Shown one piece after another: positions 18,025-64,000 of a DNA stretch of 64,000 nt. The notes beneath the pieces were generated by a model. The model was not told the DNA's origin, did no database searches, and saw only the letters and a program-made list of their open reading frames with translations. This DNA comes from Spirochaetia bacterium (GTDB taxonomy: Bacteria > Spirochaetota > Spirochaetia > UBA9216), in contig CAXXYH010000004.1 of assembly GCA_963677925.2 (NCBI GenBank), forward strand, positions 832,001 through 896,000. The letters are read 5' to 3'. The position numbers were made by a program, and so were the translations under genes. Within the stretch, counting starts at the first letter, position 1; each line of letters starts with the position of its first letter.

Positions 18025-18075
18025 AGGATGATAATATAGTTTATATTTTTTATTGTAAAGACTTATGCATTCAGT

Positions 18076-38375: not shown

Positions 38376-38504
38376 AATGAGATTTTAATATATCTATAGA
38401 TTAATTAAAAATAAGGGGAAATAATATTAAGGAAAATACAAAAATTTTATAATAAATTAATTCTCTAAAACAATCCTATCAATAATATATTTCATTATCT
38501 GAAC

Positions 38505-39698
38505 AGTGATCGTATTAACCTGGCAATTGCAAAGAATAGGTGGTCAAATTACCTCCGAAAGATATAATGATTTTACCACAAAACATTTATCAGGAAGATA
38601 AAATGGCCACCAACAAGAATGTAACACAGAAAGCAGCAAGAAGAAAGATGAGCATGTTAGAGCTCGCAGAAGATTTAGGAAATGTAAGCAAGGTATGTAA
38701 AATTATGGGTTATTCCCGCCAGCAGTTCTATGAGATTCGGAAGAAATATTAAACTTACGAATCTCAGGGATTAATCAACAGCTGACCAGGACAACGTAAT
38801 CCACATCCAAATCGAGTAGCACCTGAAATTGAAGTAGAAATTCTGGTTTATAGTTTGGAGTACACAACCCATGATTGTCTTAGAGTTTCTCAGCAGCTTG
38901 CCTTGAAAGGTGTGAACGCAAGTTAAGGCGGAGGCCGAGGAGTATGGATTAGGCATAAAATAGAAACTCGCCACCAGCGTTTTTTACGCTTGAAAGGAAA
39001 TTGATATATTAAAAATTCAAGCTTAATGATGACCAAATAAAACTACTTGAAAGAGTTAATCCTGAGATCAGAGAAAGATAAATCGAAACAAAACATACAG
39101 GTTATCTCGTTTTGATAGATACCTTTATGGATCGGACATCTGAAAGGAATCGGTAAAATATACTTACAGACAGTAATTGATTGTTATAGTCGACATGCAT
39201 TAGGAAGGCTGTATACAAATAAGCTTCCTGTGACAGCATTTCAGGTGATAAACAATGATGTTCTGCCTTTTTTCGAAGAACATAATGTGAAGGTTAAGAA
39301 TGTGCTGACCGACAATAGACATGAGTATTACGGAAGAGCGGGCTGTCATTCGTTCGAATTAGTTATTCAGTTTAAGGATATCGAGCACAGGATAACAAAG
39401 GTTCGCAGGCCACAGAGTAATGGATTTTTAAGTGGCTACATCGAACTTTACTGGATAAGTTTTTTTAGAATTAAAGGTCGTGAAAAATACTACGAATATT
39501 ATCTGAGATGCATTAAGATCTGGATAAGTTTTTGAAGTACTACAACAATGAGCGAGCACATCAAAGGTGCAATATGAAGAATAGAACACCCTCTCCGGTC
39601 ATCCTTGAGGAAATAGAAAAAGACGAGGATAATGATGGCACTGCCGCATAATGAAATTATATATTTTTCGAAGTGAGTGTCAAGGAAATACGCTAACT
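38505..39698 (+). mobile_element. Degenerate IS481-family element (transposase with stops/frameshifts)
   Basis: Fragments RRKMSMLELAEDLGNVSKVCKIMGYSRQQFYEIR, GHLKGIGKIYLQTVIDCYSR, VLTDN...RPQSNGF, YNNERAHQ. Imperfect terminal IRs at 38505-38525 and 39678-39698 (15/21 match). Confidence 0.9.
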
Positions 39699-39962
39699 AA
39701 ACGAATTATCATAGGTGTACACTGTTTGGCTATATTGTTTTGATAAAATAAAAAACAGTCTCAAAATTTTGTGCTGTGATTAACCTATAAAAATATAGGT
39801 GAGTTTCAGCTTGCTGAAATAAATATTTTTAATTACAAACTGGATTACAATATTGAAATTAAACAAGTATATAGACACTTTCGAATAATAAAATGCTAAT
39901 TTGTACCTTGGTAATTCTTTTGTCAATAACAATTTAAATTAAAAATTTAGAACGTAGTAGTT

Positions 39963-39978
39963 TGGCATACAGATTGCA
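39963..39978 (+). promoter_or_regulatory. sigma54 (-24/-12) promoter
   Basis: TGGCAT-acaga-TTGCA, 43 nt upstream of ATG 40022. Confidence 0.75.
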
Positions 39979-40021
39979 TTATATTTATATATAATTTATT
40001 TGGATAGCAAGGAGTTTTTCG

Positions 40022-41773: not shown

Positions 41774-41859
41774 AAGTTAAAATAGGTAACTATTTGCTTT
41801 GATTAGTATTTATGTGACGAATTATAATTGAATATAAACTTTCTGTAAATAAATTTAGA

Positions 41860-41893
41860 CACAAAACTCAGACGTTAGAGTTTGGGTTTTGTG
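41860..41893 (+). terminator. Hairpin downstream of the beta-helix gene
   Basis: CACAAAAC-TCAGAC-gttaga-GTTTGG-GTTTTGTG (with G-U pairs). Confidence 0.5.
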
Positions 41894-42141
41894 AAATAAA
41901 TAAGTTCTGATTAGGACTAATTATTGGAACTCAAATTTTTCAGATAGGGCGTGTTAATTATTTAGTATAAAAATCTCTGTATATGGTGCAAGAAAAATAG
42001 CAAAAACATCAAAAATCTATTGTAAATTATGGATGTGAATGCGCACTATCTTAGTTTAAAAGAGTATATTTTTTTCTATCTGCTTCCTTTTTAAAGATGT
42101 TCGCTTGATAATTCTTTGCAAAAAGAATACCAAGATTGAGT

Positions 42142-42330
42142 GTGTATGCAGACAAGATTAAGAGATAAGCGCAAGCCTCTTCGAATTACCTGTAAATAGT
42201 TAGGACGCTCGCCATGAAAAATTTATTAAGATTCAGGAAGAAATTTACTTTAGATAAAGAATTTCATGATAATATCGTATAAAAAGCGGTTGAAAGACGC
42301 TTTGGGCTATCTAAAAGAAAATATAGACTA
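42142..42330 (+). mobile_element. Highly decayed IS5-like transposase remnant
   Basis: Fragments VYADKI and KAVERRFGLSKRKYRL resemble the IS5-family ADxIY and RxxVExxFGxxKRxYxL motifs. Confidence 0.5.
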
Positions 42331-42928
42331 TGATTAAAAATTGAATTTGATGTAAGCGAGTGTGAGTAGTATACACTTTTTAATGCTATATTTGAAAAAA
42401 TTATTTAAGGAAATGACTGAAGTCATGAATACGTATAAGATAGAATCAAATAATATTGCTTAAAATACTTTTTGGGCAAGATATAGAGATTATTGGTATG
42501 GCTTTAAGCTATAAATGATTTTTTAATTATATATTTAAAAATCAAGATAATATTCATTATATTTATGTTAATATTGTTAGATAATATTAATAAAGATTTT
42601 TATATATTTGAAAATATTGTTTCTGTATTATATGTTCTTTCAAAATAACTTTCTTATGCTAAGAATAAGGGGGTGGTATTTTTTATTCCCTTAAAATATA
42701 AAGTTACAATTTTGATAATGATGCACAAGATAATTATTATAATTAAAATGATGCAAAAAAAGGGTATTAGAGACAAAGACTGAATCGGAATACTATAAAA
42801 ACATATTTATTGGATGATAAGAAGCGGTCTTGTGATGATATAGATAGTTGTTGATATTTAGATGGGAAGTTTTCTGTATGAGTATAACATTATAATCCAT
42901 GTTTTATGTAAATTAGAAAGGAATTAAA

Positions 42929-43789: not shown

Positions 43790-43858
43790 ATATTATATAT
43801 TTATAAACAATTTTTTAATTTCAGATAAAACTATTATAGGGCTCGCAATCCCTAAAAC

Positions 43859-44289
43859 TGTACCATGAGATAGATTAGTTTTCTGTCACAATATACAATA
43901 GAGACTGAAATGAAGAGATGGTTTGCAGATGAACAGATTATTAAAAACCTGAATGAATACCAATCTACTCAAAGAGTAGATTTACATCGAAAAGGATGTA
44001 CAAGCGTAGTCACTTCCCGAGGCTTAAAATAAAAAGTGCGAAATATTTTAGGCACTACCCAAAATCTGGGAATCCGACTACGAATTGTCATATCGAGAGT
44101 ATTAATGGGATTTTCAGAAATAAATTGTCTGAATACAATTTATTTTAATAGCATTAAAAAATGGGGTGTTGAATAAAATGAAGAACGCCCACAAGAACGA
44201 TTAAAATGGGTGGCACCTTACCAGTATGAAGCAATAATAGATAGGCTGAAAACTATCCTTGGTAGTGGTCAGAAAATGGAGTGAGGTCA
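43859..44289 (+). mobile_element. Internally deleted IS3-family remnant
   Basis: OrfA start MKRWFADEQIIKNLNEY at 43910; OrfB tail NEERPQERLKWVAP; TG...GGTCA ends. Confidence 0.6.
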
Positions 44290-44445
44290 CAATAATAAAC
44301 GTGCATATCAAGGTCGTAATTTGAAAAGTTGAACACCATTAAAAGTGTTTATATAAGAAATAAAAATACAAGATGGTGAAGGCGTTTTTTACGAATAATA
44401 TAACATTATAACTTTCTATGAAAGTGTCAAGGAAGTACTAAATCA
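44290..44445 (+). mobile_element. 3' end remnant of a second IS481-family copy
   Basis: NNKRAYQGRNLKS*TP, plus GTGTCAAGGAAGTAC (44424) matching the right end GTGTCAAGGAAATAC (39677) at 14/15 positions. Confidence 0.6.
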
Positions 44446-44727
44446 TTGCAGCATAATAAATTGATAGTCATCAGTTGGGTTAAAAAGACTCAAATGGAAA
44501 GTTAAGAATGCCTAAAAATCTTTGAGAACTACAGTGGATTTAAAAAAATATAAAATCTGTTTTGAATAAATGACAGAAATCATGAATAGGTATAAAATAA
44601 ATCAGACAGGGGAGTAAGAAATTAGCAAACCCTATATAGTTAGATTAACCAGAAAATCTTTAAGGAATATTTTTTATTCAAAAATTATAGAAGTGAAATC
44701 TGTAAAATAGTGGAGATTTAATAACAA

Positions 44728-47482: not shown

Positions 47483-48388
47483 ATGGGAAAGATTGATGTA
47501 TCAATAATAATACCTTCATACAATTCTGAAGATGTACTAATAAACACATTAAAATCAATAGAAGAGCAAAAGACAAACAATGTTTTTGAAATAATTATTA
47601 TTGACTCATCACCGTCAGATAATGTTCAAAATGTATGTAAGAATAACAAAAGGATTCAGTTTATAAAGCTGAAGGAGAAAACCCTGCCTGGAATCGCCAG
47701 AAATATCGGTGCAGAACATGCAAAAGGAGAGGTTCTGATATTCTGTGATGCCGATGTATTACTACAGGAGGATGTAGTAACAAAAGTCTGGGAATTCTAC
47801 TCAAAAGGTCATAAGGCTTTTGGAGGAGCACTTATCCTTGCAGAAGGTTCTTCACTGCCAGTAGGATTGCTTGAACATTATTTCTATAATCATGAATCTC
47901 AAAAAGAGCGGCCTGTATCAAAGAGAAGTAATCTTAGTTCAGCCCTAATGATAGTGGATCGAACCTTATTTATTGAACAAGGCGGCTTTAAAAATATACC
48001 AAGAATGCAGGATACTGAATTTACTGAAAGAATATCTCGTAATGGAGCAGTTCTTATGTTTACTCCTGAAGTTGTCGGGTGTCAGCGACAAATCACTACC
48101 TGGAAAGGATTAAATCGAAAAGTATTTCTTTGTGGACACAATCTGTATTTTATTAGGTATAAGCAGAATATATCAACTAAGAAAAAAATCTTGTTGATAC
48201 TCGGGTTGCCGTTTCTATCCATTTTAAAAATGAGTAGAATAAACTTGCGGAATATAGTTTATACAACACCTTTTGGTCGTATTAAAGCCCTTTTTTGGAC
48301 ACCAGTTATGTATTATTTAGGTTTTATTTGGATGTCTGGATTTTACAAAGGTATTATCAGAAATAGAGGAATTAGTTTAAATAGATAA
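47483..48388 (+). CDS. GT2 glycosyltransferase
   Basis: VSIIIPSYN, IIDSS, PGIARNIG, FCDADV, MQDTEF. Confidence 0.92.
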   Translation: MGKIDVSIIIPSYNSEDVLINTLKSIEEQKTNNVFEIIIIDSSPSDNVQNVCKNNKRIQFIKLKEKTLPGIARNIGAEHAKGEVLIFCDADVLLQEDVVTKVWEFYSKGHKAFGGALILAEGSSLPVGLLEHYFYNHESQKERPVSKRSNLSSALMIVDRTLFIEQGGFKNIPRMQDTEFTERISRNGAVLMFTPEVVGCQRQITTWKGLNRKVFLCGHNLYFIRYKQNISTKKKILLILGLPFLSILKMSRINLRNIVYTTPFGRIKALFWTPVMYYLGFIWMSGFYKGIIRNRGISLNR

Positions 48389-48507
48389 AAATATACAGAA
48401 ATAAAAATGTGATTAAACTTAATACGTGTGATAATATACTATGTTTAATAATGCATAATATTGTAAAATATAAATCTGTTAGAGGATATCATTAATAGAA
48501 CAATAAT

Positions 48508-51500
48508 ATGAATAGAGAAACTTCAGTCTGGTATGGGAAAAACACCAGTTTATCAAATTATAAATGCTGGTTAGATTTATTCTATAAAAACGTTGAATTA
48601 ACTCCTGATAAAATTGCAGTAATTTTTGAAAACCGTTATATTTCATATAGAGAACTTGATCTGCTTTCTAATTGGTTTTGTAATCAGATTTTAAAAAATT
48701 CAAATAATGATAATGATTTTATAGGAATTCATCTGAAAAGATCTCATATCATGCTTGCTGCGATGATTGGTGTGGCAAAAGCCGGTAAAGCTTACCTGCC
48801 ATTAGATCCTTCATTTCCGAAAGCCAGACTATTGTATATGCTCGAAGATTCTGGCACAAAATTGATAATTGCAGATGAAAATACTGGTCTTGAAGACGTA
48901 ATTGGCAATAAAGAGATTCAACTTGTGGATTCCGGGAATTGCGTGCAGGAAGAGCAAATTGATTTCATAGAATACAATTTAGAAAAACAACCAGCCTATA
49001 TATTATATACGTCAGGATCCACAGGTAAGCCGAAAGGTGTTGTTGTTGGCCATAAGGCCTTCCTGAACTTTTTATTATCAATGAAAGAAGAGCCTGGTTG
49101 TAATAGTTCAGATGTTTTACTTGCTCTTACTACTATTTCATTTGATATTTCAGGGTTGGAATTATTTCTTCCTTTAATCTGTGGCGGTACCATATATGTG
49201 GTGTCGCGTGAAGTTGTGTTAAATCCTAAAAAGATGCTGAATATCATAGAGACAAATGAAATATCAATCATTCAGGGAACTCCTGCATTATGGAAACTAC
49301 TTATAGATTATGGTTTTAAGGGAAAAGATGGGTTGAAGATCCTATGCGGTGGAGATATTTTCCCCTTGGATTTGGCAATTAATTTATATAATACAGGCTG
49401 TCCAATATGGAATATGTATGGCCCTACAGAAACAACAATCTGGTCATCAGTCTATAAGCTGGAAAAAGAACCTGATGTTGCACCCTACATAGGGTTTCCA
49501 ATTGCAAATACTGGATTTCATATATTAGATGAAGATTTGGATCCTGTTGAAAAGGGTGAGGCTGGTCTCCTTTGGATAAGCGGGGATGGTCTGTCTGATG
49601 GATACTGGAAAAAACAGGCACAAACGAATGAAGTTTTTAAAAAAATCAATAATAATTCCGGTCAATTTTTTTATAATACCGGGGACTGGGTATACGAAAC
49701 TATTGATGGCAATATTGCATTTTCAGGAAGGAAAGATAATCAGGTCAAAATTCGGGGATATCGTATAGAAATTAGTGAAATAGAGAAAAGTCTCATAAAT
49801 ATTCCTGCAATAAAAGATGCTGTAGTATTATCCAGGAAAGATAGTAAAGAAAATACAATATTAGTAGCTTTTTATATATTAGATCAAATTGATGAAGAAA
49901 TTTCATCATCTTTCATCAGAAATGAGTTGGCTAATACTTTACCTGAATACATGATTCCCGCTTATTATTTTAAGTTGGATAAGTTTCCAATGACACTGAA
50001 TAATAAGATTGATAGAACTGCTTTTCCTGATATTGGTACAATTGAAAAACAATCAGAATCCAAAGTTCAAAAGACCTTAACCTTATTGGAGTACATTCAA
50101 AAATGCTGGAATGAGTCTTTGGGCCACAAAAACTTTTCAGAACATGATAATTTTTTTGATGTTGGAGGGTATTCTGTTCTAATTGTTGATATTTTACATA
50201 AAATTGGAACTTTTCTTAATAAAGATATAGATCCCTTAATATTTTTTGAAAATCCTACGATTTATTCATTAAACAAAGCCTTAACAACAAATAAAGAAGA
50301 TATTATAATTGATTCTGCAAGTATGGATAAAGATACTCTTCTTGAAGATTCTGATGATCTTACCCTCGCTATAATTGGAATGTCCTGTGCTGTGCCGGGA
50401 GCTGAAAATGTAGAGGAATTCTGGGAGTTGTTATCTCAGGGTAAAAGCGGAATTTTGGAACATTCAGTAGATGATTTAATAAACGCCGGCATGCCTTTGG
50501 AGGTTATAGAACAGCCGAATTATATTAGGAAATCCGGAATTTTACCTTCTACTGAGTATTTTGATCATGAATTCTTTGGTTATTCACCTAAAGAAGCTAA
50601 ATTTATGGATCCGCAGCATCGATTGTTTATGCAGCATTGTTATAAAGCTTTAGAATCCGCAGGTATAAAGTCTACCGATGACAATAAAACTGCTGTTTTT
50701 GCCGGTTCCGGACAGAATAAATATCTATTAAAAAATATTATTTTTAGCAGCGAGAAAGAGGAATTTTCGGATTTTCAGATAATGGTAGGAAATGAAAATG
50801 ACTTTTTAGCATCCCGTGTTTCATATAAGCTTAATCTTAGAGGTCCTGCTGTTACTGTTCAATCCGGGTGTTCTACATCTCTCGTTGCTGTTCAGCTTGG
50901 ATATCAAAGTCTTCTTAATTATCAGTGTGATATGGCTTTATGTGGCGGTGTAAGCCTCAATGTTCCGGTAACAGAAGGGTATCTTTATGAGGAGGGCTCA
51001 ATTCTGAGTCCTACAGGAGAGTGTCGAGCGTTTGATGTTGATGCAGATGGAACAGTATTCGGTTCCGGGGTAGGTGTTATTTTATTAAAAAGATTGTCTG
51101 ATGCAGTCCGCGATAATGATCCAATAATAGCTCTCTTAAGATCTGTTGCAATTAATAATGATGGGGCTGACAAAATTGGTTATACTGCACCAAGTATTAG
51201 GGGCCAGGCTGAAGTAATATCTGAGGCATTAGCACTGGCCGATGTGAGCCCGGAACTTATAAGTTATGTCGAAACCCATGGCACGGGAACAATACTTGGA
51301 GATCCCATAGAGATCTCCGGATTGAAAAAAGCATTGAATGCTCAAAGCAGTGATAATCACAAATGTTATATTGGATCAGTTAAAACTAATATTGGTCATC
51401 TTGATACGGCTGCTGGAATTGTAAGCTTGATAAAAACAGCTCTATCTATAAAAAATAAGAAAATACCGGCTTCTTTAAACTATTTAGCCCCAAATCCTGT

Positions 51501-54075
51501 TATGAAGCTCGAAGAAACAAATTTAATTGTTAATTCTAAGCTTCGAGATTGGGAACCTGTCAAGGATAGAATTATAGCTGGCGTAAGTTCTTTTGGTATA
51601 GGTGGTACCAATGCACATGCGGTACTTGAAAAGTATAATTATGATGACATTTATGCTTCGTCCTCATCCTCGGAAAGGTTAATTTTCCCAGTTTCCGCTA
51701 AGAATGAAGATGTTCTTAAAGAGTATTTAAATCTATTATATTCCAGTATCAATGAATTCAAAAAAGAGGACATGATTAATGCTGCTTTTACCCTGAATAA
51801 TTATAGAAATAATTATATTTATCGAGGGTATTTCATTCTTTCATTAAAGAATTTGAATTCTCCTGATGATTTATCTGAAAATATATATTATTCAGTGAAA
51901 AAGGCATATAGTTCTCCAAAAGTTGTAATGCTTTTCTCAGGTCAGGGAACTCAATATACTGGAATGATTTCTGAACTCTACAATGAAAACCATGATTTTA
52001 GAAAAAACTTGCAATTTTGTTCTGACATTATAAAAAATAATACTGGTTGGAATGTAACTGAATTACTTTTTGATGAAAGATCAGAAATTTATCAGACTGA
52101 GTATACTCAACCATTATTGTTTGCTGTTGAATGGTCTATTGCTAAGACTTTAATTGATTATGGTCTGGATATCGATTATTTAATTGGACATAGTCTTGGT
52201 GAATATACAGCAGCGTGTATAGCCGGAGCATTTTCTATTGAGGAGGGTCTTCAGCTTGTTATAGATCGGGGAAGAATAATGGCTTCTGCAGGTGAAGGGC
52301 ATATGCTAGCCGTTTTTTGTTCATTTGACTCCATTGAAAGTATACTTGAAGATTATAAAGTATCTGTTGCTGGAAAAAATTCACCAAAACAAGTAGTTCT
52401 ATCAGGATCGAAATCATCAATTTCAGAAATACAAAAAATATTTGATGATAAAGGAATTATATCAAAACAACTTGGAATAAATTCAGCTTTTCATAGTGAG
52501 TTGATGGAGCCTATTCTCGATGAATTCAGAATCGCTGCCGCTCGGATTTCCTATAAACCTCTAAATAAAATTGTTGTATCAAATTGTACAGGTAACAAAC
52601 TTGAGAAGGGATTTATTTATAATGCTGATTATTGGGTTAAACATCTTCGGGGAACGATTTTATTTGAAGATGGTATAAAAAATCTGGCAGACATAGAGGA
52701 AGCTGTATATATTGAAGCGGGTCCGGGGGCTGTATTAATTAATTTTATAAGAGTAACTCTAAAAGATAATATTAAAACTACTATTCAAACTATTCCCGTA
52801 TCTGGAAACAACACTAATGGAGCCTTATTTTTTACAAAAGCCATTGGAGATATTTGGAAAGCTGGATGTAATATTAATTTAGATTATGTAAATTCTATTG
52901 AATCATCTAAAAGAATTAATCTACCTACTTATCCATTTTTAAAAAAGAAGTTGTGGATTTCTCCGGACAGAAGTTTTTCTGGATCAACCAACAATAAAAA
53001 ATTACAGAAAGTCATAGCAAACGAAATGAAAACTGAAGATGTTTCTGTTAAAAATAAATTAAAAAGAATTTGGTCTATAGTTTTAGGTTATGAAGATGTT
53101 TCAATAGATGAAAATTTCTTCGATTTAGGTGGAGATTCTTTACTTTCTGCAAAATTAATCAAGGAAATTAATGAACAGTTTCTAACAAAGATTACACTAA
53201 AAGAGGTTATGACGAATCCTACTATTAGTGGTATGGAATCGATAATTAATAAAAAAAATATTTCCAGGAATACCTTTACTGAAAGCTCAAATATGAATTA
53301 TGTAATTAAGCTGAATGATTCGGATTCTGATGAATTGTTCTATTGTGTCGTCGGGGTTCAAATATACAAAGAATTAGCTGAAAATCTCTCAGACATTGGT
53401 CGTTGTTATGGTACTTATTTACCTGAAGAAGAAGAGCTTATGAAAGGAAATTTGAAAGAAGATCAGTGGGATGTCAAAGATTTAGCAAGAAGTTATAAGA
53501 AAATAATTATCGAGCACAGTAAAGGTGTATCTGTTAATCTTATCGGAATTTCATTTGGTGGATTGGTAGCATATGAGATTGCAAAACAATTAAAAGAGAA
53601 TGGTATTGATGTAAAATTGCTTGTTATGTTGGATTCATTATTGCCGTTTGGTATCAAAAGGATTCCATATAAGTGGGTGAAATCTCATATTATTGATATT
53701 TTGAAAAATGGATTTCAAAAAGAAAATAAGAAAAAAATAAAAAATCTGATCAATAAAAAAAGAGATTTGGAAAATGATCTTATTATTAATAAACGTCAAG
53801 ATATCTATAAAGCCGCCCTTGAATTATTTGTAAATCAGCCTCAAACTATTTATTACGGTGAAAGCTTATTGGTTAAGGCGCAGGATGAAAATAATTATCC
53901 TGGATATAAAGTAGATCCGGTTTATGGTTGGGAAAAGTATATAAATAAAGATAAGATTCATACGTCTATCTCCCCTGGAGGGCATTTGGATATTCTAAAA
54001 AGTCCGAATGTAAGAATCACTGCAAAATCAATTAGAGATAATTATCTCAGAATTTTAAATGATAAAATAAAATAA
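48508..54075 (+). CDS. Hybrid NRPS-PKS: A(Gly)-PCP-KS-AT(malonyl)-ACP-TE
   Basis: A domain: YTSGSTGKPKG, FDIS, YGPTETTIW. PCP: FFDVGGYS. KS: QSGCSTSLVA, ETHGTGT, NIGHLD. AT: GQG.Q, GHSLGE, SAFHS. ACP: FFDLGGDSLL. TE: GISFGG...GGH. Confidence 0.95.
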   Translation: MNRETSVWYGKNTSLSNYKCWLDLFYKNVELTPDKIAVIFENRYISYRELDLLSNWFCNQILKNSNNDNDFIGIHLKRSHIMLAAMIGVAKAGKAYLPLDPSFPKARLLYMLEDSGTKLIIADENTGLEDVIGNKEIQLVDSGNCVQEEQIDFIEYNLEKQPAYILYTSGSTGKPKGVVVGHKAFLNFLLSMKEEPGCNSSDVLLALTTISFDISGLELFLPLICGGTIYVVSREVVLNPKKMLNIIETNEISIIQGTPALWKLLIDYGFKGKDGLKILCGGDIFPLDLAINLYNTGCPIWNMYGPTETTIWSSVYKLEKEPDVAPYIGFPIANTGFHILDEDLDPVEKGEAGLLWISGDGLSDGYWKKQAQTNEVFKKINNNSGQFFYNTGDWVYETIDGNIAFSGRKDNQVKIRGYRIEISEIEKSLINIPAIKDAVVLSRKDSKENTILVAFYILDQIDEEISSSFIRNELANTLPEYMIPAYYFKLDKFPMTLNNKIDRTAFPDIGTIEKQSESKVQKTLTLLEYIQKCWNESLGHKNFSEHDNFFDVGGYSVLIVDILHKIGTFLNKDIDPLIFFENPTIYSLNKALTTNKEDIIIDSASMDKDTLLEDSDDLTLAIIGMSCAVPGAENVEEFWELLSQGKSGILEHSVDDLINAGMPLEVIEQPNYIRKSGILPSTEYFDHEFFGYSPKEAKFMDPQHRLFMQHCYKALESAGIKSTDDNKTAVFAGSGQNKYLLKNIIFSSEKEEFSDFQIMVGNENDFLASRVSYKLNLRGPAVTVQSGCSTSLVAVQLGYQSLLNYQCDMALCGGVSLNVPVTEGYLYEEGSILSPTGECRAFDVDADGTVFGSGVGVILLKRLSDAVRDNDPIIALLRSVAINNDGADKIGYTAPSIRGQAEVISEALALADVSPELISYVETHGTGTILGDPIEISGLKKALNAQSSDNHKCYIGSVKTNIGHLDTAAGIVSLIKTALSIKNKKIPASLNYLAPNPVMKLEETNLIVNSKLRDWEPVKDRIIAGVSSFGIGGTNAHAVLEKYNYDDIYASSSSSERLIFPVSAKNEDVLKEYLNLLYSSINEFKKEDMINAAFTLNNYRNNYIYRGYFILSLKNLNSPDDLSENIYYSVKKAYSSPKVVMLFSGQGTQYTGMISELYNENHDFRKNLQFCSDIIKNNTGWNVTELLFDERSEIYQTEYTQPLLFAVEWSIAKTLIDYGLDIDYLIGHSLGEYTAACIAGAFSIEEGLQLVIDRGRIMASAGEGHMLAVFCSFDSIESILEDYKVSVAGKNSPKQVVLSGSKSSISEIQKIFDDKGIISKQLGINSAFHSELMEPILDEFRIAAARISYKPLNKIVVSNCTGNKLEKGFIYNADYWVKHLRGTILFEDGIKNLADIEEAVYIEAGPGAVLINFIRVTLKDNIKTTIQTIPVSGNNTNGALFFTKAIGDIWKAGCNINLDYVNSIESSKRINLPTYPFLKKKLWISPDRSFSGSTNNKKLQKVIANEMKTEDVSVKNKLKRIWSIVLGYEDVSIDENFFDLGGDSLLSAKLIKEINEQFLTKITLKEVMTNPTISGMESIINKKNISRNTFTESSNMNYVIKLNDSDSDELFYCVVGVQIYKELAENLSDIGRCYGTYLPEEEELMKGNLKEDQWDVKDLARSYKKIIIEHSKGVSVNLIGISFGGLVAYEIAKQLKENGIDVKLLVMLDSLLPFGIKRIPYKWVKSHIIDILKNGFQKENKKKIKNLINKKRDLENDLIINKRQDIYKAALELFVNQPQTIYYGESLLVKAQDENNYPGYKVDPVYGWEKYINKDKIHTSISPGGHLDILKSPNVRITAKSIRDNYLRILNDKIK

Positions 54076-54194
54076 ATTGGAAAAATTTAGACAGGATTAC
54101 CACCTGCTATTTTAAATTATTTGAATCTTTCTTAAAAACTTTGAATTTAGTGTATAATTATAAACAGTAAAAAAATTCAGGTGAAGGTAAAAAT

Positions 54195-57100
54195 ATGAGT
54201 GTTATGATAACTTCTATCAAGCGTTATTTTCAAACAGTTAACGCAATTTTAAAAGTTAATACTGCATATAATATTGTTCTTTGTTGTAAGCTTTCCGGGA
54301 AGATAGATATTCCTAAATTGCATAAGTGTTGGCTTGATTGTTCAGCTCTCATCCCTGAACTATATGGAGTTTGTGATGTTGAGAAGATCCAAATCGTATC
54401 CGAAGAAAAAGCATATAGTTTTGTTAAAAAAGAATCTGAAAATAATTTTGATTTAAGCGATTCTGGTGTCCCATTAAGGGCTTTTATCCTCGAGTTAAAT
54501 ACTTCTGATTGCTTGTTCTGTGTAATACAGCATCATTCGCTTATAGATCTCCATTCAAAAAACCTTCTATCAAGGACGATATCAGAACTATATAATAAAG
54601 GAAAGAGTTCTTTTAAGTTTCTTAAATACAAAGAAACAGAGCCAGCTATACTAAATATGGAGTTCTGGAAAAATCAGCTGGAAAATGAACCATCGCCTCT
54701 GTTGCTCCCTTCAGCCTTACCCGAAAGGGGTAATTTTACAGGTGATGGACATACAATTTTTGCAGATATGCCGGATTGGGTTGGTGCTGGACTTCAAAAT
54801 ATTGAAATTGAATATCAGCTTCAGGATTTCCTGATATTCCTGACTGTATATGCTGTTATGCTCTTAAGATTAAGCGGACAGGATGATTTCTTTATTGGAA
54901 TCCCGTTTTCAAATAGAAAGAACCCTGAGCGTGAGTTTATGTATGGTCCCTTTGTAAATGTTCTTCCACTTCGTGTGCAGATTGATAATTCTGATACATT
55001 CATCACTCTTTACTCAAAAATCAGAAAGCAAATGCTACTGCTGAACAGGAATCAGGATGCCCCTTTTCTTGAAATTTCCAGGCTTTATCTTGGTCAGCGT
55101 GATTCCAGGATTCCTTTTTTTATCCAGGCGGGTTTTACACGTGAAGATCCTTTTAATCTTGATCTGGATGGTCTTAAGTGTTCGACTGTTGATATTCGAC
55201 CTGATGGCGCCCAGATGGATCTTTTTCTGACATATTGGCAGGAAAATGATAGATTCCGGTATCGTTGGGAATATAACACTAATGCTTTTACTGAATCACA
55301 GGCTTTAGGTTGGAAAAAATCTTATGAGAATATACTTAAACAGGTATTAACACTCCCTGACATAAAAATTTCTGACATTTCAATGCTTCAGGATAGGTCC
55401 GGAGTTTCTGTCTTTAAGGAAACAATAAGGAAATATCCGGTTGAAATTCCTTTGCGAGCGCTTCTGGAAAAGGTAAGAAAACAAAATTCTGATATCACTG
55501 CAATCAGGGATAAAACCAGGAGCCTAAACTATAATCAGTTTGATAAGCTGGTAAATCAGTATTCATCTGTTTTATACGCAAAGGCAGGATCTGGAAAGTA
55601 CATCGCTGTGAGTATTGATAATTCCATTGAGCGGACCATTCTGATTCATTCAATAGTGAATTCCGGTAATGTCTATATCCCTGTTGATCCGAACTGGCCG
55701 TCTTCAAGGGTTGATTATATCCTTGGAAATTCAGGGGCAAGTCTTGCAGTTATTGAAAAACGCAATTCAGGAAAATACCAAAGCGATGTTGAAACAGTAT
55801 TTATAGATTATTTCCAGGTCTCTGATATAAGTACTGATATCAGAATGGATAAAAAACCTCACGATCCTTTTGCTGTGCTTTATACAAGTGGATCAACAGG
55901 TAACCCCAAGGGCGTTTTTATTAATGGGGACGGACTGATTAACAGACTCTACTGGATGCAGGAAGCCTATCCGTTAAAGCCGGGAGATTCTCTGCTGCAT
56001 AAGGTCCCATTTACGTTTGATGTTTCCATGTGGGAAATATTCTGGCCGTTTCTGTTCGGAGCTTCTCTTTATATTCCTGAACCGGCAAAACATCTTGATG
56101 ATAATTATCTTGCCAATACTATTCGTGAACAGAAAATTAAGTATGTTCACTTTGTTCCCTCACTACTTAAGAAATTTCTTGATTATGCAAAAAATACAGA
56201 TCTGCCGGAACTTAAAGCAGTTATTTGTTCCGGTGAGGCGCTTGAGGTTTCGCTTCTTGAGCAGTATTTTGCAAAAATAGGAAATAAACCGCTTCATAAC
56301 CTTTACGGCCCTACAGAGGCTTCTATTGATGTTACAGCGTGGACATGTTCAAAAGGTGATCTAGATAAGAAGCGAATACCTATAGGGTATCCCATAGCTA
56401 ATACAAGAATTTATATACTTGATAAATATGGAAAGCTCTGCCTGCCTTATGTTAAAGGTGATATTGTTATTGCAGGTATTAATGTTTCAGACGGATATGT
56501 CAATAATCCAGAACTTACTTCAAAGGTTTTTATTGAAGGTGACTGGGGATTTGGTCGTGAACGAGTGTATTTTACTGGTGATCTGGGGTTTTATTCCGAA
56601 CAGGGTATTATCTATTACGACGGTAGAAAAGATTCTCAAGTGAAGATAAACGGTATCAGGATTGAGTTGTCGGAAATCGAACGTCAGCTTGAAAAACTTA
56701 GATCAGTGAAAGCTGCTGCAGTTATAATCCCCGGTAAAAATCAAGGCGATATGACAATATTTGCGTATCTGAAAACTGAATCAAATATTGATATTACAAG
56801 TATTAAGAAGGACCTCTCTCATGTACTGCCAGGCTATATGATTCCTGGAACGTTTGTTGTTCTGGAAGATTTTCCTATGCTGACAAGCGGAAAGATAGAC
56901 AGGAAAGCTCTTACTGCCATTACCCCGGATGTGAAAACTGATTCAGCTTCTAAACCTGTAAAAGCTGCGGGGCATTCAGGAGAAATATCATCGTTGTGGA
57001 GTGAACTCCTTAATCTTGCAGAAATTCCTCTGGATATCAGTTTTTTTGATATTGGTGGTCATTCCCAGCTGCTTCCAGAACTTAAGAGCAGGCTTGAGAA

Positions 57101-57275
57101 ACTATCAGGTGTAGAGATAGAGCTGATTGATCTGTTCAATTATCCTACGGTACAATCACAGTGTGAGCTGCTCTTTAATTCCGGTTCTGAGGTTAAAATT
57201 GAGGTGTCCGGAAATGAGAGACGGCAGATAATGCGGCGTGCGGCTCAAAGAGGCAGGCAGCGGAGAAACGGGTAA
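54195..57275 (+). CDS. NRPS module: C-A(Ser)-PCP
   Basis: C domain: HHSLIDL. A domain: YTSGSTGNPKG, FDVSMWE, HFVPS, NLYGPTEASIDV. PCP: FFDIGGHS. Confidence 0.93.
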   Translation: MSVMITSIKRYFQTVNAILKVNTAYNIVLCCKLSGKIDIPKLHKCWLDCSALIPELYGVCDVEKIQIVSEEKAYSFVKKESENNFDLSDSGVPLRAFILELNTSDCLFCVIQHHSLIDLHSKNLLSRTISELYNKGKSSFKFLKYKETEPAILNMEFWKNQLENEPSPLLLPSALPERGNFTGDGHTIFADMPDWVGAGLQNIEIEYQLQDFLIFLTVYAVMLLRLSGQDDFFIGIPFSNRKNPEREFMYGPFVNVLPLRVQIDNSDTFITLYSKIRKQMLLLNRNQDAPFLEISRLYLGQRDSRIPFFIQAGFTREDPFNLDLDGLKCSTVDIRPDGAQMDLFLTYWQENDRFRYRWEYNTNAFTESQALGWKKSYENILKQVLTLPDIKISDISMLQDRSGVSVFKETIRKYPVEIPLRALLEKVRKQNSDITAIRDKTRSLNYNQFDKLVNQYSSVLYAKAGSGKYIAVSIDNSIERTILIHSIVNSGNVYIPVDPNWPSSRVDYILGNSGASLAVIEKRNSGKYQSDVETVFIDYFQVSDISTDIRMDKKPHDPFAVLYTSGSTGNPKGVFINGDGLINRLYWMQEAYPLKPGDSLLHKVPFTFDVSMWEIFWPFLFGASLYIPEPAKHLDDNYLANTIREQKIKYVHFVPSLLKKFLDYAKNTDLPELKAVICSGEALEVSLLEQYFAKIGNKPLHNLYGPTEASIDVTAWTCSKGDLDKKRIPIGYPIANTRIYILDKYGKLCLPYVKGDIVIAGINVSDGYVNNPELTSKVFIEGDWGFGRERVYFTGDLGFYSEQGIIYYDGRKDSQVKINGIRIELSEIERQLEKLRSVKAAAVIIPGKNQGDMTIFAYLKTESNIDITSIKKDLSHVLPGYMIPGTFVVLEDFPMLTSGKIDRKALTAITPDVKTDSASKPVKAAGHSGEISSLWSELLNLAEIPLDISFFDIGGHSQLLPELKSRLEKLSGVEIELIDLFNYPTVQSQCELLFNSGSEVKIEVSGNERRQIMRRAAQRGRQRRNG

Positions 57276-57287
57276 AGGAGCAGTCGT

Positions 57288-59264
57288 TTGTGCGGGATTA
57301 CAGGAATACTCAAGCCGGGACCGGCAAAAGAACTTAAAGCGGAAATCGAAAAATTAATTCCCTATATTGAGCATCGCGGACCTGACGGATGGGGCAGTTA
57401 CGGGGCTCCTGGGATTGCACTCGGGCACCGCCGTCTCTCTATTATTGATCTGAGTCTTGGAAGTCAGCCTATGGTGTCCGGAAATTCAGTAATAACCTTT
57501 AATGGTGAAATTTATAATTATCTGGAACTCAAAAAAGAGCTTGAATCACTTGGTGTGCTTTTTGAAACTAACAGTGATACTGAAGTTCTTCAGAAAGCAA
57601 TAGATTTCTGGGGAGATTCCGCTTATAGCAGGCTAAACGGACAGTTTGCTCTACTTCACTGGGATAAGAAAAGAAGAATATTAACTGCAGTACGGGACAG
57701 GTACGGAATTAGACCTTTATATTTTATGAAAACTGAAGGCGGCTGGTATTTTTCTTCAGAGATGAAGATTTTTGATCATATAGGCAGTCGAAAACGGTTC
57801 TGGAATCCTGAGAATCTGCTTGAGCATGGGCTTATCTGGAATACTTTGGGCGATTCCACAGTATACAGTAACATCTGCTCGCTTGAAGGCGGCTGTTTCC
57901 AGAAGTTCAGTGATGAAGGAACTTCCGGTCCGAAAAGATACTATGTTCTGGGGCAGGATGCTGGTGCAATGCTTACGGAAGCTCCAGATGTTTTGGCCGA
58001 AATCTTTCGCGAAAAGCTTTCAGAATCTGTCAAACTTAGGCTTCGAAGTGATGTTCCTGTTGGCTGTTACCTCAGCGGCGGGATTGATTCATCGGTAACC
58101 TCTTATCTTGCAAAGAAAATCAATAACAAATCATTTAAGAGTTTTTCAGTAACTTTCAGCGATCCATCCTTTGATGAGTCTGAATTCCAGAAGATAATGG
58201 TAAATTCGCTGGGGTTCGATCATTATTCTGTGAATATCGATGGCAAAGCTGTAGAAAATAATTTTTATAATGCGGCGAAACACTTTGAGAGGCCTGTTTT
58301 CAGGACAGCTCCGGTGCCGCTTTTTCTTCTTTCAGAGAAGGTTCGTGAAACTGATGTAAGGGTAGTGCTCACTGGTGAGGCTTCAGATGAAATTCTGTTT
58401 GGTTATGACACCAACAAGGAGCTTAAACTTCTTTCACTCTGGAAAAAAGGTTTGAGTGAGGAGGAGATTACAAAGATTCTCCTGCAGCTTAATCCGCATC
58501 TTGACCATTACAAAGATAAAGAGCAGGTTGGTTTTTTAAAAATGTACTACGAGGGTTTCCTGGATCGCTTTCAAAGTCCTCTTGGTGGACTGGTTATGCG
58601 AATCAGTAATAATCAGGTGTTAACCAATATATTTAATAAAGAATGGGGTCTTTCTTTCAATTTCAACAACCTTGCGGATAAAGTGGATTCATTGACTCCG
58701 CCACACGTTAAGCAGTGGGGCATATATCAGAAAAATCAATTCTGGGAGATGAAGACTTTGCTTTCCGGGTATCTTCTCTCTGCACAGGGAGACAGGATGG
58801 CGATGTCTCATGGTATTGAGGGCCGTTTTCCCTTTCTTGATCATAACCTCATTGAATGGCTGATGACTGTTCCTACAGATGTAAAAATAAATGATTTCTC
58901 AACAAAACATCTGCTTAAGGATGCTTTCAGGGATGTTATTCCGGAACCAATAATAAATAGGCCTAAAAGACCTTATACAGCACCCGACATAGCGTCATTT
59001 TTTCCTGGCGGCAGACGTGGAGAACTTGTGAAAAATTATTTAAATAGTGATATAGTGAGAGAGTACGGGATTTTTGAACCTAAAATGGTAGAAAGATTGA
59101 TTTTTAAAATAGAACGTCGAGGTCTTGAATCTGCGGGATACCGTGATAACATGATGACAACTTATCTGCTTTCCTCTCAAATTGTTGAAAGTCAAATCAG
59201 AAATCCTGAAATAAAAATTGTTGATTACTCGAATCAGACAGTGAGTGTGCTAGAGGAGTATTAA
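57288..59264 (+). CDS. asnB: Asparagine synthase (glutamine-hydrolysing)-like amidotransferase
   Basis: N-terminal MCGI, HRGPDG, LGHRRLSIID, FNGEIYNY, LSGGIDSS, LTGEASDE, DRMAM..GIEGRFPFLD. Confidence 0.93.
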   Translation: MCGITGILKPGPAKELKAEIEKLIPYIEHRGPDGWGSYGAPGIALGHRRLSIIDLSLGSQPMVSGNSVITFNGEIYNYLELKKELESLGVLFETNSDTEVLQKAIDFWGDSAYSRLNGQFALLHWDKKRRILTAVRDRYGIRPLYFMKTEGGWYFSSEMKIFDHIGSRKRFWNPENLLEHGLIWNTLGDSTVYSNICSLEGGCFQKFSDEGTSGPKRYYVLGQDAGAMLTEAPDVLAEIFREKLSESVKLRLRSDVPVGCYLSGGIDSSVTSYLAKKINNKSFKSFSVTFSDPSFDESEFQKIMVNSLGFDHYSVNIDGKAVENNFYNAAKHFERPVFRTAPVPLFLLSEKVRETDVRVVLTGEASDEILFGYDTNKELKLLSLWKKGLSEEEITKILLQLNPHLDHYKDKEQVGFLKMYYEGFLDRFQSPLGGLVMRISNNQVLTNIFNKEWGLSFNFNNLADKVDSLTPPHVKQWGIYQKNQFWEMKTLLSGYLLSAQGDRMAMSHGIEGRFPFLDHNLIEWLMTVPTDVKINDFSTKHLLKDAFRDVIPEPIINRPKRPYTAPDIASFFPGGRRGELVKNYLNSDIVREYGIFEPKMVERLIFKIERRGLESAGYRDNMMTTYLLSSQIVESQIRNPEIKIVDYSNQTVSVLEEY

Positions 59265-59266
59265 TT

Positions 59267-59509
59267 ATGTCATTGAAACAAATGTTGATAGATTTTATTT
59301 GTCAGAATTTTATGGTTGAAGAACATGAGATAGATCTTGATGAATCTCTCATTGACCAGGGAATTATTGATTCATTTGGTCTTGTGGAGATTTCCGGGTT
59401 TCTTAAAAAGGAATTTGGAATTGAAACTGATCAGTCTGACATGAACAGGGCAAATTTCGGATCAATAGAAAAAATAGTAATATATGCAGAATCAAAGCGT
59501 TTGAAATAA
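59267..59509 (+). CDS. Stand-alone acyl/aminoacyl carrier protein (DltC-like)
   Basis: SLIDQGIIDSFGLVEI...EFGI...NFGSI. Confidence 0.92.
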   Translation: MSLKQMLIDFICQNFMVEEHEIDLDESLIDQGIIDSFGLVEISGFLKKEFGIETDQSDMNRANFGSIEKIVIYAESKRLK

Positions 59510-59575
59510 GCGAAGTGCATGGAAAAATTATTCTTTACCTGACTAAGCAGTGTTAGTTTTAAAAAAGATGACGGC

Positions 59576-59818
59576 TGCTGGCTTGATTTATATTATAAGA
59601 ATATCAATTTGGTTTCGCGGAAAATAGCTGTAATATTCGAAGATAGGAGAATTTCATATAGGAAACTTGATTATCTTGTAAACTGGTTTTTCGACAAAAT
59701 ACGCAGTTTATATTCATCCGGGACTCTGTTTGCAGGCATTTTTACAAAATATTCCAATTTGATGCTTGCAGCTAATTTTCTAAGGAATTATGTATGGAAT
59801 CAACATTTTATAAGATAA
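59576..59818 (+). pseudogene. Decayed fragment of an adenylation-domain gene, paralogous to the 5' end of the NRPS-PKS
   Basis: CWLDLYYKNINLVSRKIAVIFEDRRISYRKLDYLVNWF...MLAA aligns without gaps to CWLDLFYKNVELTPDKIAVIFENRYISYRELDLLSNWF...MLAA (48565-48762). Confidence 0.8.
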
Positions 59819-59950
59819 CGGGCTTTCTATCAATTAATCAAAAAACTTAATGTGAAAAGTAATAAAAAGGCTCTCTCTATCAAAATCTCTATAAAAAGAC
59901 TTTGTCTCTAAATATAACGTTGTTTTTTCAGAGTGACTATTGTAAAAAAG

Positions 59951-60850
59951 TTATTTAACTGCTTCCATATAAATTGCGACATCTGTCCATAATCTATCAA
60001 AAACTGGGTTTTTCCTCATCACAGGTGAGAGACTTTGGCCTGCGGATAAGGAAATTACTTTTTCAAATCCAGCTTCAAAAAGGAAATTTTCTAGTTTGCA
60101 ATAATCCCACCAATTAACATGGTTTTTTCTATATTTCCGCTGTTTTTCTATCGAACATCGGCTTGTACATAGATTCATTGCATTTTGAAAATTATTATCT
60201 CTTATTATTGAATCAAATTCTTCATCGCTTATAGGATTATCTGCTCCATCTGAATGTATCATTGAAGCATTCGCAGCAAAATGGGATAGCATTACCTGTG
60301 GAAGCGTTGCTTTATTAAGTGGAGTAGAGAACTTCATTATGTCCATTATCTCCGGATAGCTAAACCCATCTAACCACCAAAAATATTGTCTATCGTTTCT
60401 TAAATATGCTTCATAATCTAATCTAATATTCGGGGTGACAATTTTAAATATGCCATCCTTTTTTAGTGTTCTATGGATTTCTTTGAAAAGGTAGATTGCT
60501 GAATCATCATCTATGTGTTCAATTGCAAAACGACTATGGAATAATTCTGCAGAATTGGATTCTATTGGAAGTTCATTTCTATCTAACGGATCATGTGCAA
60601 TATCGATTTCAGGATTAAATCTTGGATAAATCTCTTCACCGAGATCAACATCTATATTTGTCCAATAGGGATGGTAGAATTTACCACCGAAACCAAAATG
60701 ACCTCCTGCTGAAATATTATAAAATGCTTTCTCTTTAACACTTTTAATCCCATAAATTTCGGAATACTCTGAGAGTCTTTCTATTTTATTATCTGATTTT
60801 ATAACATCATATCCAAAAGATTTTAAAAACTTTTTAATTCGCTTTTTCAT
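59951..60850 (-). CDS. Class I SAM-dependent methyltransferase-like protein
   Basis: YNISAGG, WTNIDV, SRFAIEHI, EIHRTLKKDGIFKIVTPN. Confidence 0.8.
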   Translation of the reverse strand: MKKRIKKFLKSFGYDVIKSDNKIERLSEYSEIYGIKSVKEKAFYNISAGGHFGFGGKFYHPYWTNIDVDLGEEIYPRFNPEIDIAHDPLDRNELPIESNSAELFHSRFAIEHIDDDSAIYLFKEIHRTLKKDGIFKIVTPNIRLDYEAYLRNDRQYFWWLDGFSYPEIMDIMKFSTPLNKATLPQVMLSHFAANASMIHSDGADNPISDEEFDSIIRDNNFQNAMNLCTSRCSIEKQRKYRKNHVNWWDYCKLENFLFEAGFEKVISLSAGQSLSPVMRKNPVFDRLWTDVAIYMEAVK

Positions 60851-63630: not shown

Positions 63631-64000
63631 CTATTTGTTCTGTCTCCAGCTTTCATGAGTTATTCCAAAACGTTTGACTTTATAATTCAGAACTCTGCTT
63701 GATACATTCAGTAGTTCTGCCGCATCTTTCTGAACCCAGCTTGAACGTTCAAGTGCCTGAAGTATTAAGTTTTCTTCCACTTCCTCAAGACAGACGCCCT
63801 GTTCAGGGAGAATAATCCCTGATTCTGAAGAAGTATTTTTAGGTTCTGCGGAAGGTGTTTTACTTATGATTTTATGACGTCTATTGAAATGCAGTTCAAG
63901 TTCTTCGGGTGTAATGATATCACCTTCAGTCATAAGAACTACCCGTTCAATTGTATTTTCAAGCTCTCTTATATTTCCCGGCCAGCTGTAATCCATCAGC
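63631..64000 (-). CDS. NtrC-family sigma54-dependent activator (3' part only)
   Basis: YSWPGNIRELEN (end of AAA+ domain) and Fis-type HTH LEEVEENLILQALERSSWVQKDAAELLNVS. Confidence 0.92.
   Translation of the reverse strand, partial: LMDYSWPGNIRELENTIERVVLMTEGDIITPEELELHFNRRHKIISKTPSAEPKNTSSESGIILPEQGVCLEEVEENLILQALERSSWVQKDAAELLNVSSRVLNYKVKRFGITHESWRQNK

Follow-up and report, generated by a model that had tools for sequence, protein, structure and literature searches.

Several described systems have parts in common with the locus reported here. According to the available part of a recent preprint, an acyltransferase (AT), a dedicated acyl carrier protein (ACP) and an asparagine-synthetase homolog together produce starters in the form of malonamyl- or succinamyl-ACP, the nitrogen being supplied by glutamine, such amidated-starter systems including MgsC/MgsD (iso-migrastatin, glutarimides) and GbnA/GbnB/GbnC (gladiolin) (bioRxiv 10.64898/2026.04.24.720606). 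Methoxypyrrolinone terminal units have been proposed, in the portion of the article available, to arise from an amino-acid module, a non-reducing malonyl polyketide synthase (PKS) module and a stand-alone methyltransferase, as in althiomycin (AlmB module 6 and a methyltransferase) and chalkophomycin (ChmP/ChmQ) (PMC11085572). Here we analyse a stretch of 64,000 nucleotides from a Spirochaetia bacterium (GCA_963677925.2, contig CAXXYH010000004.1, positions 832,001 to 896,000; hereafter the window, in whose positions coordinates are given), in which a preliminary description made from the sequence alone had noticed a block combining nonribosomal peptide synthetase (NRPS) and PKS domains with an AsnB-type enzyme and a carrier protein (CP) among polysaccharide genes. 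We tentatively propose, with a confidence slightly short of even, that positions 48508-60850 are a conserved cassette which travels in a hypervariable Wzx/Wzy-type locus and makes a small amide-bearing unit derived from glycine, serine and malonate for that pathway; that this product is attached to the glycan is something we infer, with much the same degree of doubt.

The cassette resembles the amidated-starter systems in that an AsnB homolog stands beside a small discrete carrier, in a cluster with a malonyl-type AT and a ketosynthase (KS), and by analogy it may work like such a system joined to a minimal NRPS-PKS. It differs from them in having no separate loading AT in the window, where the cis AT of the hybrid is the only one, and in its neighbours, which are a C-A-PCP NRPS module and an A-PCP-KS hybrid (C, condensation; A, adenylation; PCP, peptidyl carrier protein) in a polysaccharide locus and not a trans-AT PKS; MgsD and GbnC are likened to the window's AsnB by gene arrangement and expected chemistry. 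With the methoxypyrrolinone units it has in common an amino-acid carrier feeding a malonyl-type KS-AT-ACP module without reductive domains, a separate methyltransferase gene adjoining, and release at that point, whereas its methyltransferase is a divergent Methyltransf_11-type protein and the chain upstream has no more than one or two residues. The Dlt system (DltA/DltC) of teichoic acid D-alanylation likewise uses an adenylation domain and a small carrier in the service of a cell-surface polymer, and DltC is the best NCBIfam match of the CP. However, both scores lie below the cut-offs (NF003464, 36.3 bits against 68; TIGR01688, 24.2 against 52.35), which makes the earlier designation of this carrier as DltC-like a weak one, no DltB/DltD (MBOAT-type) transferase was found by Pfam among the 35 open reading frames (ORFs) of the window that were scanned, and KS, AT, C and AsnB are additional to the Dlt components. 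Finally, the accessory genes of XrtA/PEP-CTERM exopolysaccharide (EPS) loci (TIGR03108 amidotransferase, TIGR03098 acyl-CoA ligase), for which we know of no established function, also place an adenylating enzyme, a carrier and an AsnB-type protein together in EPS loci; unlike that amidotransferase, the window's AsnB reaches 338.9 bits on TIGR03108, where the cut-off is 816.9.

A family 2 glycosyltransferase (GT2) gene (47483-48388, +; Pfam Glycos_transf_2, 7e-27) is followed by the gene for the hybrid (48508-54075, +), whose product, 1855 aa long, is arranged as A(Gly-type)-PCP-KS-AT(malonyl-type)-ACP-TE, TE being a thioesterase domain; then come a C-A(Ser-type)-PCP module of 1026 aa (54195-57275, +), a glutamine-dependent AsnB-type amidotransferase of 658 aa with a TTG start and Cys2 directly after the initiator (57288-59264, +; Pfam GATase_7 and Asn_synthase, 9e-79) and the free-standing CP of 80 aa, with its predicted attachment site at D35-S36 (59267-59509, +). 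These five genes are co-directional, with successive gaps of 120, 120, 13 and 3 nt. Two parts had escaped the preliminary description: a degenerate 5' remnant of a hybrid gene, some 85 codons long and recognised by tblastn and translation (59519-59773, +), and, on the opposite strand, a gene for a class I S-adenosylmethionine-dependent methyltransferase-like protein of 299 aa (59951-60850, -).

In the hybrid, Pfam places AMP-binding at residues 26-367 (3e-74), KS at 621-992 (9e-71 and 4e-38), Acyl_transf_1 at 1142-1445 (7e-51), Thioesterase at 1616-1842 (3e-12) and two PP-binding stretches, the carrier serines being S556 and S1544. Read from the translation, the KS triad (Cys788, His924, His964) is in place, and the AT carries GHSLG at 1227 and AFHS at 1327, an xAFH motif being what we take to mark malonyl-type ATs; the TE has GISFG together with the conserved Asp and His. 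Neither ketoreductase, dehydratase nor enoylreductase domain was found in the hybrid by Pfam, and the spacing of about 70 aa between AT and ACP is too short for one. The second protein matches Condensation (7e-46), AMP-binding (6e-71) and PP-binding, with HHSLIDL at residue 113 in the C domain and GGHS at 954, and the CP matches PP-binding at 30.1 bits (cut-off 20.8). All five genes are open and every catalytic residue checked is present, and the domain series, the intact AsnB cysteine and the malonyl-type, non-reducing character of the PKS part are as the preliminary description had read them. The cassette is very probably one functional unit. No repeats of 25 nt or longer flank the block, and neither promoter-like sites (74 against 78.6 in shuffled sequences) nor terminator-like ones (10 against 8.3) are in excess.

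The specificity codes read by eye earlier were reproduced both from motif anchors, at the positions that we presume to be the right ones for such extraction, and from alignment columns: DILQLGMIWK (Gly-type) in the hybrid and DVWHISLIDK (Ser-type) in the C-A-PCP protein. For the pocket segment of the first A domain the nearest PDB entries are 5u89 and 4zxh, both presumably glycine-activating, with DILQLGLIW and DILQLGVVW at the same columns. LgrA, the top PDB match of this domain (1e-155), was rejected as evidence for glycine, its score being a sum over two A domains of which the second has a different pocket; the best single-domain match is 5u89 (7e-104; pocket segment 2e-27). We take 5u89 to be the A-PCP-C fragment of a DhbF-type dimodular NRPS, A(Gly)-PCP-C-A(Thr)-PCP. 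It is also the best single-domain PDB match of the C domain (2e-17), where it is no better than several others, and since it leads for both the Gly-type A and the C domain, this hints that A(Gly)-PCP and C-A(Ser)-PCP derive from one Gly-then-Ser/Thr dimodule; the gene order A(Gly)-PCP-TE then C-A(Ser)-PCP in genome G543 (see below) points the same way. Unlike a DhbF-type dimodule, the cassette has the two halves on separate proteins, with A(Gly)-PCP fused to a PKS module. As regards serine, DVWHFSLVDK, cited as a serine code in the available part of one article (PMC8313283), is the code of the ortholog in genome G237 and differs at two positions from that of the window.

Whole-genome searches covered three overlapping samples, one of 61 relatives and two of 401 genomes each, drawn respectively from the phylum and from the class. 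The cassette occurs in seven genomes from four families of the same phylum: the source genome (G000), G001, G018, G237, G613, G529 and G543; a truncated match in G677 was left out of the counts. Such synthases are uncommon in the phylum samples, as had been supposed, and in the source genome the only matches to the hybrid at E<=1e-30 are the two NRPS/PKS genes of the window. The protein database holds about a dozen relatives of the same architecture at 42-57% identity, and a contig scan with the hybrid as query returned just relatives of 23-37% identity from other phyla. One long protein, P0003 (2902 aa, A-PCP-KS-AT-ACP-C-A-PCP-TE), was considered as a fusion of the two window genes and rejected, its second A domain being again Gly-type.

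All six other genomes encode the C-A-PCP protein, AsnB and CP together with the PKS part. The order is C-A-PCP, AsnB, CP, in some cases a WbuX-like gene, and then the hybrid in G001, G018 and G613, followed by the methyltransferase gene in the first two; in G237 it is AsnB, CP, WbuX-like, C-A-PCP, hybrid, so that in four of the six the PKS gene is preceded, on its own strand, by that for C-A-PCP. In G529 and G543 the PKS protein is KS-AT-ACP-TE without A-PCP and its gene is convergent on the remaining cassette genes; G543 has a separate A(Gly-type)-PCP-TE gene immediately upstream of C-A-PCP, and G529 has a similar 910-aa A-type ORF on another contig, for which reason the idea that G529 is without any Gly-type A domain was dropped. 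DILQLGMIWK is kept in all five fused hybrids, DVWHxSLxDK in all seven C-A-PCP modules and HHxxxDL in all seven C domains; this conservation of codes and motifs across seven genomes, at protein identities of 33-78%, indicates selection.

Further observations concern the same gene families. Stand-alone A-PCP-TE proteins of 809 and 835 aa (G543, L122:5210-7639; G613, L117:11992-14499) and a 934-aa A-type protein (G001, L017:1153-3957) occur within related polysaccharide loci, with Gly-like or related codes (DILQLGMVWK, DLPQLGMVWK, DMPQVGFVWK), and they are candidates for direct aminoacyl transfer by a TE. The WbuX-like PP-loop protein is encoded after CP genes in G018 (L019:5297-6298), G237 (L028:2553-3602 and 17266-18261) and G613 (L118:433-1479); the G018 and the two G237 copies score 146-161 bits on TIGR03573 (N-acetyl sugar amidotransferase, cut-off 203.2), and that of G613 was recognised solely by its BLAST match (70% identity) to the G018 copy. 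The gene is absent from the loci of the window, G001, G529 and G543; its product could convert an amide to an amidine.

AsnB and CP are constantly paired. In the stretches fetched from these genomes, AsnB lies directly beside a CP gene for all nine clade homologs, which include second AsnB-CP pairs in G237 and G613, and in eight of the nine AsnB precedes CP on a common strand; no carrier gene adjoins a tenth, distantly related AsnB-like ORF of G543 (22-25% identity). The window's AsnB reaches 420.8 bits on TIGR01536 (cut-off 267.1), and C2, R49-D54, N72-E74 and the SGGxDSS loop are invariant in the alignment of the nine homologs, as are I34, D35 and S36 in that of the CPs; ammonia is therefore the expected nucleophile, the glutaminase cysteine and motifs being kept throughout. 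A prediction of their complex from the two alignments gave a score of 0.78, and the best of three controls one of 0.00; the level of 0.78 was reached by 58 of 80 solved complexes and by 2 of 110 mismatched pairs; the prediction runs agreed in at least 90% of contacts, with a predicted local distance difference test (pLDDT) value of at least 88 for the partner. The model lays CP residues 35-41, the region of Ser36, against AsnB residues 407-448 and 600-623 in the synthetase domain and supports binding of CP by AsnB; no experimental structure of an AsnB-carrier complex is known to us. The further pair of G237 adjoins a methyltransferase and an acyl-CoA-ligase-type A protein, with no NRPS, and fits a scheme in which an acid is loaded on the carrier and then amidated; it matches the XrtA/PEP-CTERM models best, both scores lying below the cut-offs (ligase 402.7 bits against 592.35; AsnB 472.4 bits). 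Taking together the conserved glutaminase, the constant pairing with CP, the complex model and the published trio of AT, ACP and asparagine-synthetase homolog, we consider AsnB to be probably an amide synthetase acting on a CP-bound acyl group. Malonyl delivered by the cis AT is the simplest choice for this group, at odds somewhat below even.

The tie between the cassette and polysaccharide genes, which the preliminary description had seen in a single locus, recurs elsewhere: in five of the six other genomes the fetched stretch contains homologs of the window's Wzx, Wzy-like, glycosyltransferase, WecG, Wza or Wzc genes. In G018, which belongs to another family, the cassette lies between Wza/Wzc and GT4/Wzx genes (GT4, family 4 glycosyltransferase), with a phosphopantetheinyl transferase (PPTase) gene and an Acyl_transf_3 gene beside it; Wzx, Wzy-like, WecG, GT4 or GT2 homologs share the stretch with the cassette in G613, G529 and G543. 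The cassettes of G018 and G613 are interleaved with sugar genes on the same strand, and Acyl_transf_3 and hexapeptide genes adjoin them. For comparison, 80 generic A-PCP-KS-AT loci were selected from a metagenome scan with an alignment of 11 orthologs by the generic motifs YGPTETTI and SFGIGGTN (matches of 29-41% identity): none of the 80 has an AsnB, CP or methyltransferase homolog, and four have a homolog of any of nine EPS genes, in no case Wzx, Wzy-like, Wza or Wzc. Between the source genome and G001 the same chromosomal site can be compared directly: the flanks are 81-98% and the cassette proteins 57-78% identical, and most glycosyltransferases are not common to both, so that the cassette persists while sugar genes turn over.

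As regards assembly, we envisage that an Sfp-type PPTase primes the four carriers. Its candidate gene, whose location the preliminary description had left to be checked, lies outside the window about 14.9 kb past the CP gene (PF01648 match at G000:C4:906415-906657, 70.3 bits, in a 221-aa frame); a second PF01648 match lies at C3:680875-681201, in a 128-aa frame. The cis AT would load malonyl on the ACP and on the free CP too, and AsnB, docked on the CP, would adenylate the free carboxylate of the bound acid and amidate it with glutamine-derived ammonia to give malonamyl-CP, as in the MgsC/MgsD and GbnA/GbnC starter systems. The amidated acyl group could then be used by the C domain to N-cap Ser-PCP, or serve the KS as a starter; the C-domain donor can be the cargo of the free carrier or Gly-PCP, and the KS can accept either the Gly on the hybrid's own PCP or a chain delivered from another source. 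Gly and Ser would be incorporated and one malonyl extension without reduction would leave a beta-keto thioester on the ACP, whose enol the methyltransferase may O-methylate. Since the TE follows the PKS ACP, ketide extension is expected to be the last step, and release would take place there, by ring closure to a tetramate- or pyrrolinone-type product or by acyl transfer onto a hydroxyl or amine group of a sugar precursor, the final product being a polysaccharide substituent.

The methyltransferase is a divergent member of its family (Methyltransf_11, 28.5 bits against a cut-off of 21.2), for which 25 of the 30 nearest Atlas clusters are methyltransferase clusters (score 0.97) and an AlphaFold2 model from a four-row alignment has a mean pLDDT of 45.6; it stands beside the cassette in four of the seven genomes, with orthologs in G001, G018 and G529 at 54-60% identity. 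The TE (window positions about 53350-54040) is the least conserved part of the hybrid, and among 16 KS-linked TEs (with relatives in L007, L110, L112 and L114) its nucleophile is Ser in six (GxSFGG) and Cys in ten (GECxGG), the two forms occurring even within one genus (Ser in G529, Cys in G543); poor conservation and the two nucleophiles weakly suggest that the acceptor of the TE varies. A more specific version of our proposal, in which the cassette is a dedicated line for a non-sugar Wzx/Wzy substituent composed of a malonamyl or related amidated unit, Ser, Gly and one ketide, and the TE is itself the glycan acyltransferase, is possible and decidedly more doubtful than the general one; there, the variation of the TE would reflect the different acceptor sugars of locus variants.

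The window's own gene order is a secondary rearrangement, since a relic of the 5' end of a hybrid gene still follows the CP gene. Over 59519-59773 this relic is 42% identical to residues 1-85 of the G001 hybrid (tblastn, 1e-13; a value of 49% against the G001 hybrid was also obtained) and 56% identical to residues 20-85 of the window's own hybrid (6e-23), with an in-frame stop in its translation; in addition, the methyltransferase gene points the other way from those of G001 and G018. The relic shows C-A-PCP, AsnB, CP, hybrid to be the ancestral order and the intact upstream hybrid to be a relocated or replaced copy.

A number of points weigh against the proposal that the unit is made for the polysaccharide. 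Neither Pfam among the 35 scanned ORFs of the window nor tblastn with the relatives' copies found a glycan acyltransferase (MBOAT, Acyl_transf_3, hexapeptide), and no free-standing AT to serve the CP is present in the window or in the six related stretches, the hybrid's cis AT being the only one. The 23-kb contig of G237 has no sugar genes, and that the cassette outlasts the turnover of glycosyltransferases speaks against its being bound to a single kind of repeat unit. The loci of G000, G001, G613, G529 and G543 have flank genes in common and therefore represent one inherited site and not independent placements, and the comparison with the control loci is a rough one, their median of 16 kb being shorter than the stretches fetched for the relatives. 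The order of assembly is not separable by sequence, there being no C domain before Gly and a TE after the ACP, and the PKS part of G529 and G543 lacks A-PCP, a separate A(Gly-type)-PCP-TE being present. In G001 the C-A-PCP gene (L016:7977-11119) is split into overlapping ORFs of 218 and 837 aa, HHxxxDL lying on the short one, either by a frameshift or by a sequencing error. In the literature searched we found no precedent for an NRPS-PKS product on a Wzx/Wzy glycan, and no NRPS-PKS cassette with an AsnB/carrier pair in a Wzx/Wzy locus, although the supplements, which were not searched, may hold such loci; nor did we find there a description of this combination of known-family parts or of its setting.

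Some of these points would suit an ordinary small-metabolite cluster lying in the polysaccharide island or co-regulated with it, whose product (a tetramate, a methoxypyrrolinone or a short peptide-ketide amide) diffuses or stays non-covalently in the matrix. The missing acyltransferase, the G237 contig and the persistence of the cassette all favour it, as do the completeness of an assembly line with its own TE and tailoring methyltransferase and a chemistry that parallels diffusible products such as althiomycin-type pyrrolinones, as far as the available part of the source describes them (PMC11085572). What makes us regard it as somewhat unlikely is the same-strand interleaving with sugar genes in G018 and G613, the frequency of polysaccharide genes in the other loci (five of six, against four of 80 controls with any EPS-gene homolog) and, among the cassette's neighbours in the window, the lack of any exporter or resistance gene. 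The preliminary description had noted that lack and that of a regulator: nothing specific to the block was found, so this stands for the cassette itself, and it does not hold for the wider locus, in which a LuxR/VpsT-type regulator (18076-18747, +) and a fragment of a sigma-54 activator (63631-63996) are encoded, neither of them block-specific. In a further alternative the NRPS-PKS product would be the acceptor or anchor of an oligosaccharide made by the Wzx/Wzy machinery, the outcome being a glycosylated small molecule, which the same description had also raised, or else a special reducing-end unit. According to the available part of one study, the production of one diffusible antifungal by Collimonas depends both on an NRPS/PKS locus and on a Wzx/Wzy-type locus apart from it (PMC8313283), and persistence of the cassette under changing glycosyltransferases would be natural here too; nevertheless, Wza/Wzc export genes and a Wzy-like polymerase point to a polymer of high molecular weight, the WecG-type transferase indicates ordinary lipid-linked assembly, and the cassette has no glycosyltransferase of its own apart from the adjoining GT2, which together render this improbable.

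The pathway first suggested for the window, with 4-amino-3-oxobutanoyl as product of the hybrid, Ser contributed by the second protein and the amine product ligated by AsnB to uronic acid carboxylates, is very unlikely in our view. Certain members of the AsnB family do accept amines in place of ammonia, the best PDB relative of the window's AsnB being 7ylz, a 'hydroxyamidotransferase' (6e-49); amino-acid-ligating AsnB homologs exist in aromatic polyketide pathways, and other amide-forming enzymes (a TupA-like ATP-grasp and a FemAB-like protein) are encoded in the locus. Ligation to uronic acids is nonetheless unlikely, given glutaminase motifs invariant in nine of nine homologs, a CP beside every one of them and a model that docks the Ser36 region on the synthetase domain, and addition of Ser last is doubtful in view of the position of the TE, the upstream C-A-PCP gene in most relatives and the rearranged order of the window. 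Least probable of all is that the cassette is decaying and no longer productive in this strain: the relic of a hybrid copy, the inverted methyltransferase gene, the split C-A-PCP gene of G001 and the absence from the window of the WbuX-like gene of G018, G237 and G613 could be so read, were it not for five open genes with the checked catalytic residues in place and for codes and motifs conserved over seven genomes. We continue to favour, at the strength given above, a cassette that supplies a unit to the polysaccharide pathway.

The remainder of the polysaccharide locus occupies 15263-47036, on mixed strands, and contains the flippase, the polymerase-like membrane protein, the export proteins and the glycosyltransferases of a Wzx/Wzy-dependent pathway. 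The block itself ends an island of low guanine-plus-cytosine (GC) content (0.26-0.41 over about 18-60 kb, against 0.40-0.49 in the first 16 kb). A Wza-like gene (15263-16810, -; Poly_export/SLBB) and a Wzc/chain-length-like gene (16810-18024, -) adjoin the LuxR/VpsT-type regulator gene at the head of the locus; between G000 and G001 the regulator is 98% identical and the export genes next to it 81-84%, most of the sugar genes having been exchanged. Further along lie a Wzy-like protein with ten transmembrane segments (20150-21493), WecG (21509-22285), the Wzx flippase (32227-33678; Polysacc_synt_3, 3e-49) and the TupA-like ATP-grasp (37482-38375), with GT4, two deacetylase, GNAT, DegT, FemAB-like and GT2 genes. 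A homolog of LarA-type nickel-pincer racemases (33786-35072, +), which scores 379 bits on the malate-racemase model (cut-off 500), suggests a hydroxy-acid substituent with inverted configuration. At 40022-41773 (+) a secreted protein of 583 aa with a signal-peptide-like start, a (TED)n acidic repeat and Asn/Gly-rich repeats suggestive of a beta-helix is encoded; it has no Pfam or NCBIfam match and might act on polysaccharide as a lyase, epimerase or depolymerase. Three stretches of 0.9-1.6 kb (38376-40021, 41774-42928 and 43790-44727) hold no ORF of 102 aa or more, are situated in the most AT-rich part of the island (GC 0.26-0.32) and gave no tblastn match to genes of related loci.

The charge, antigenicity and matrix behaviour of bacterial polysaccharides depend largely on their non-sugar decorations, and the enzymes for exotic acyl and amide groups are mostly unknown. 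If the TE indeed acts as a glycan acyltransferase, an exopolysaccharide would here, for the first time, be tailored by a thiotemplate (NRPS-PKS) system, which would also provide a biosynthetic route to the pyrrolidone or amide-type acyl groups of some bacterial glycans. More generally, a thiotemplate cassette stably inherited in a hypervariable polysaccharide locus would join natural-product assembly lines with glycan tailoring, which are as a rule annotated apart from each other, and would supply a concrete gene set for experiment; independently of this, the constant AsnB-CP pair would extend the logic of amidated carrier-bound acids from trans-AT polyketide antibiotics to NRPS modules and polysaccharide loci, offering a provisional idea of what the uncharacterised ligases, carriers and AsnB proteins of other EPS loci do.

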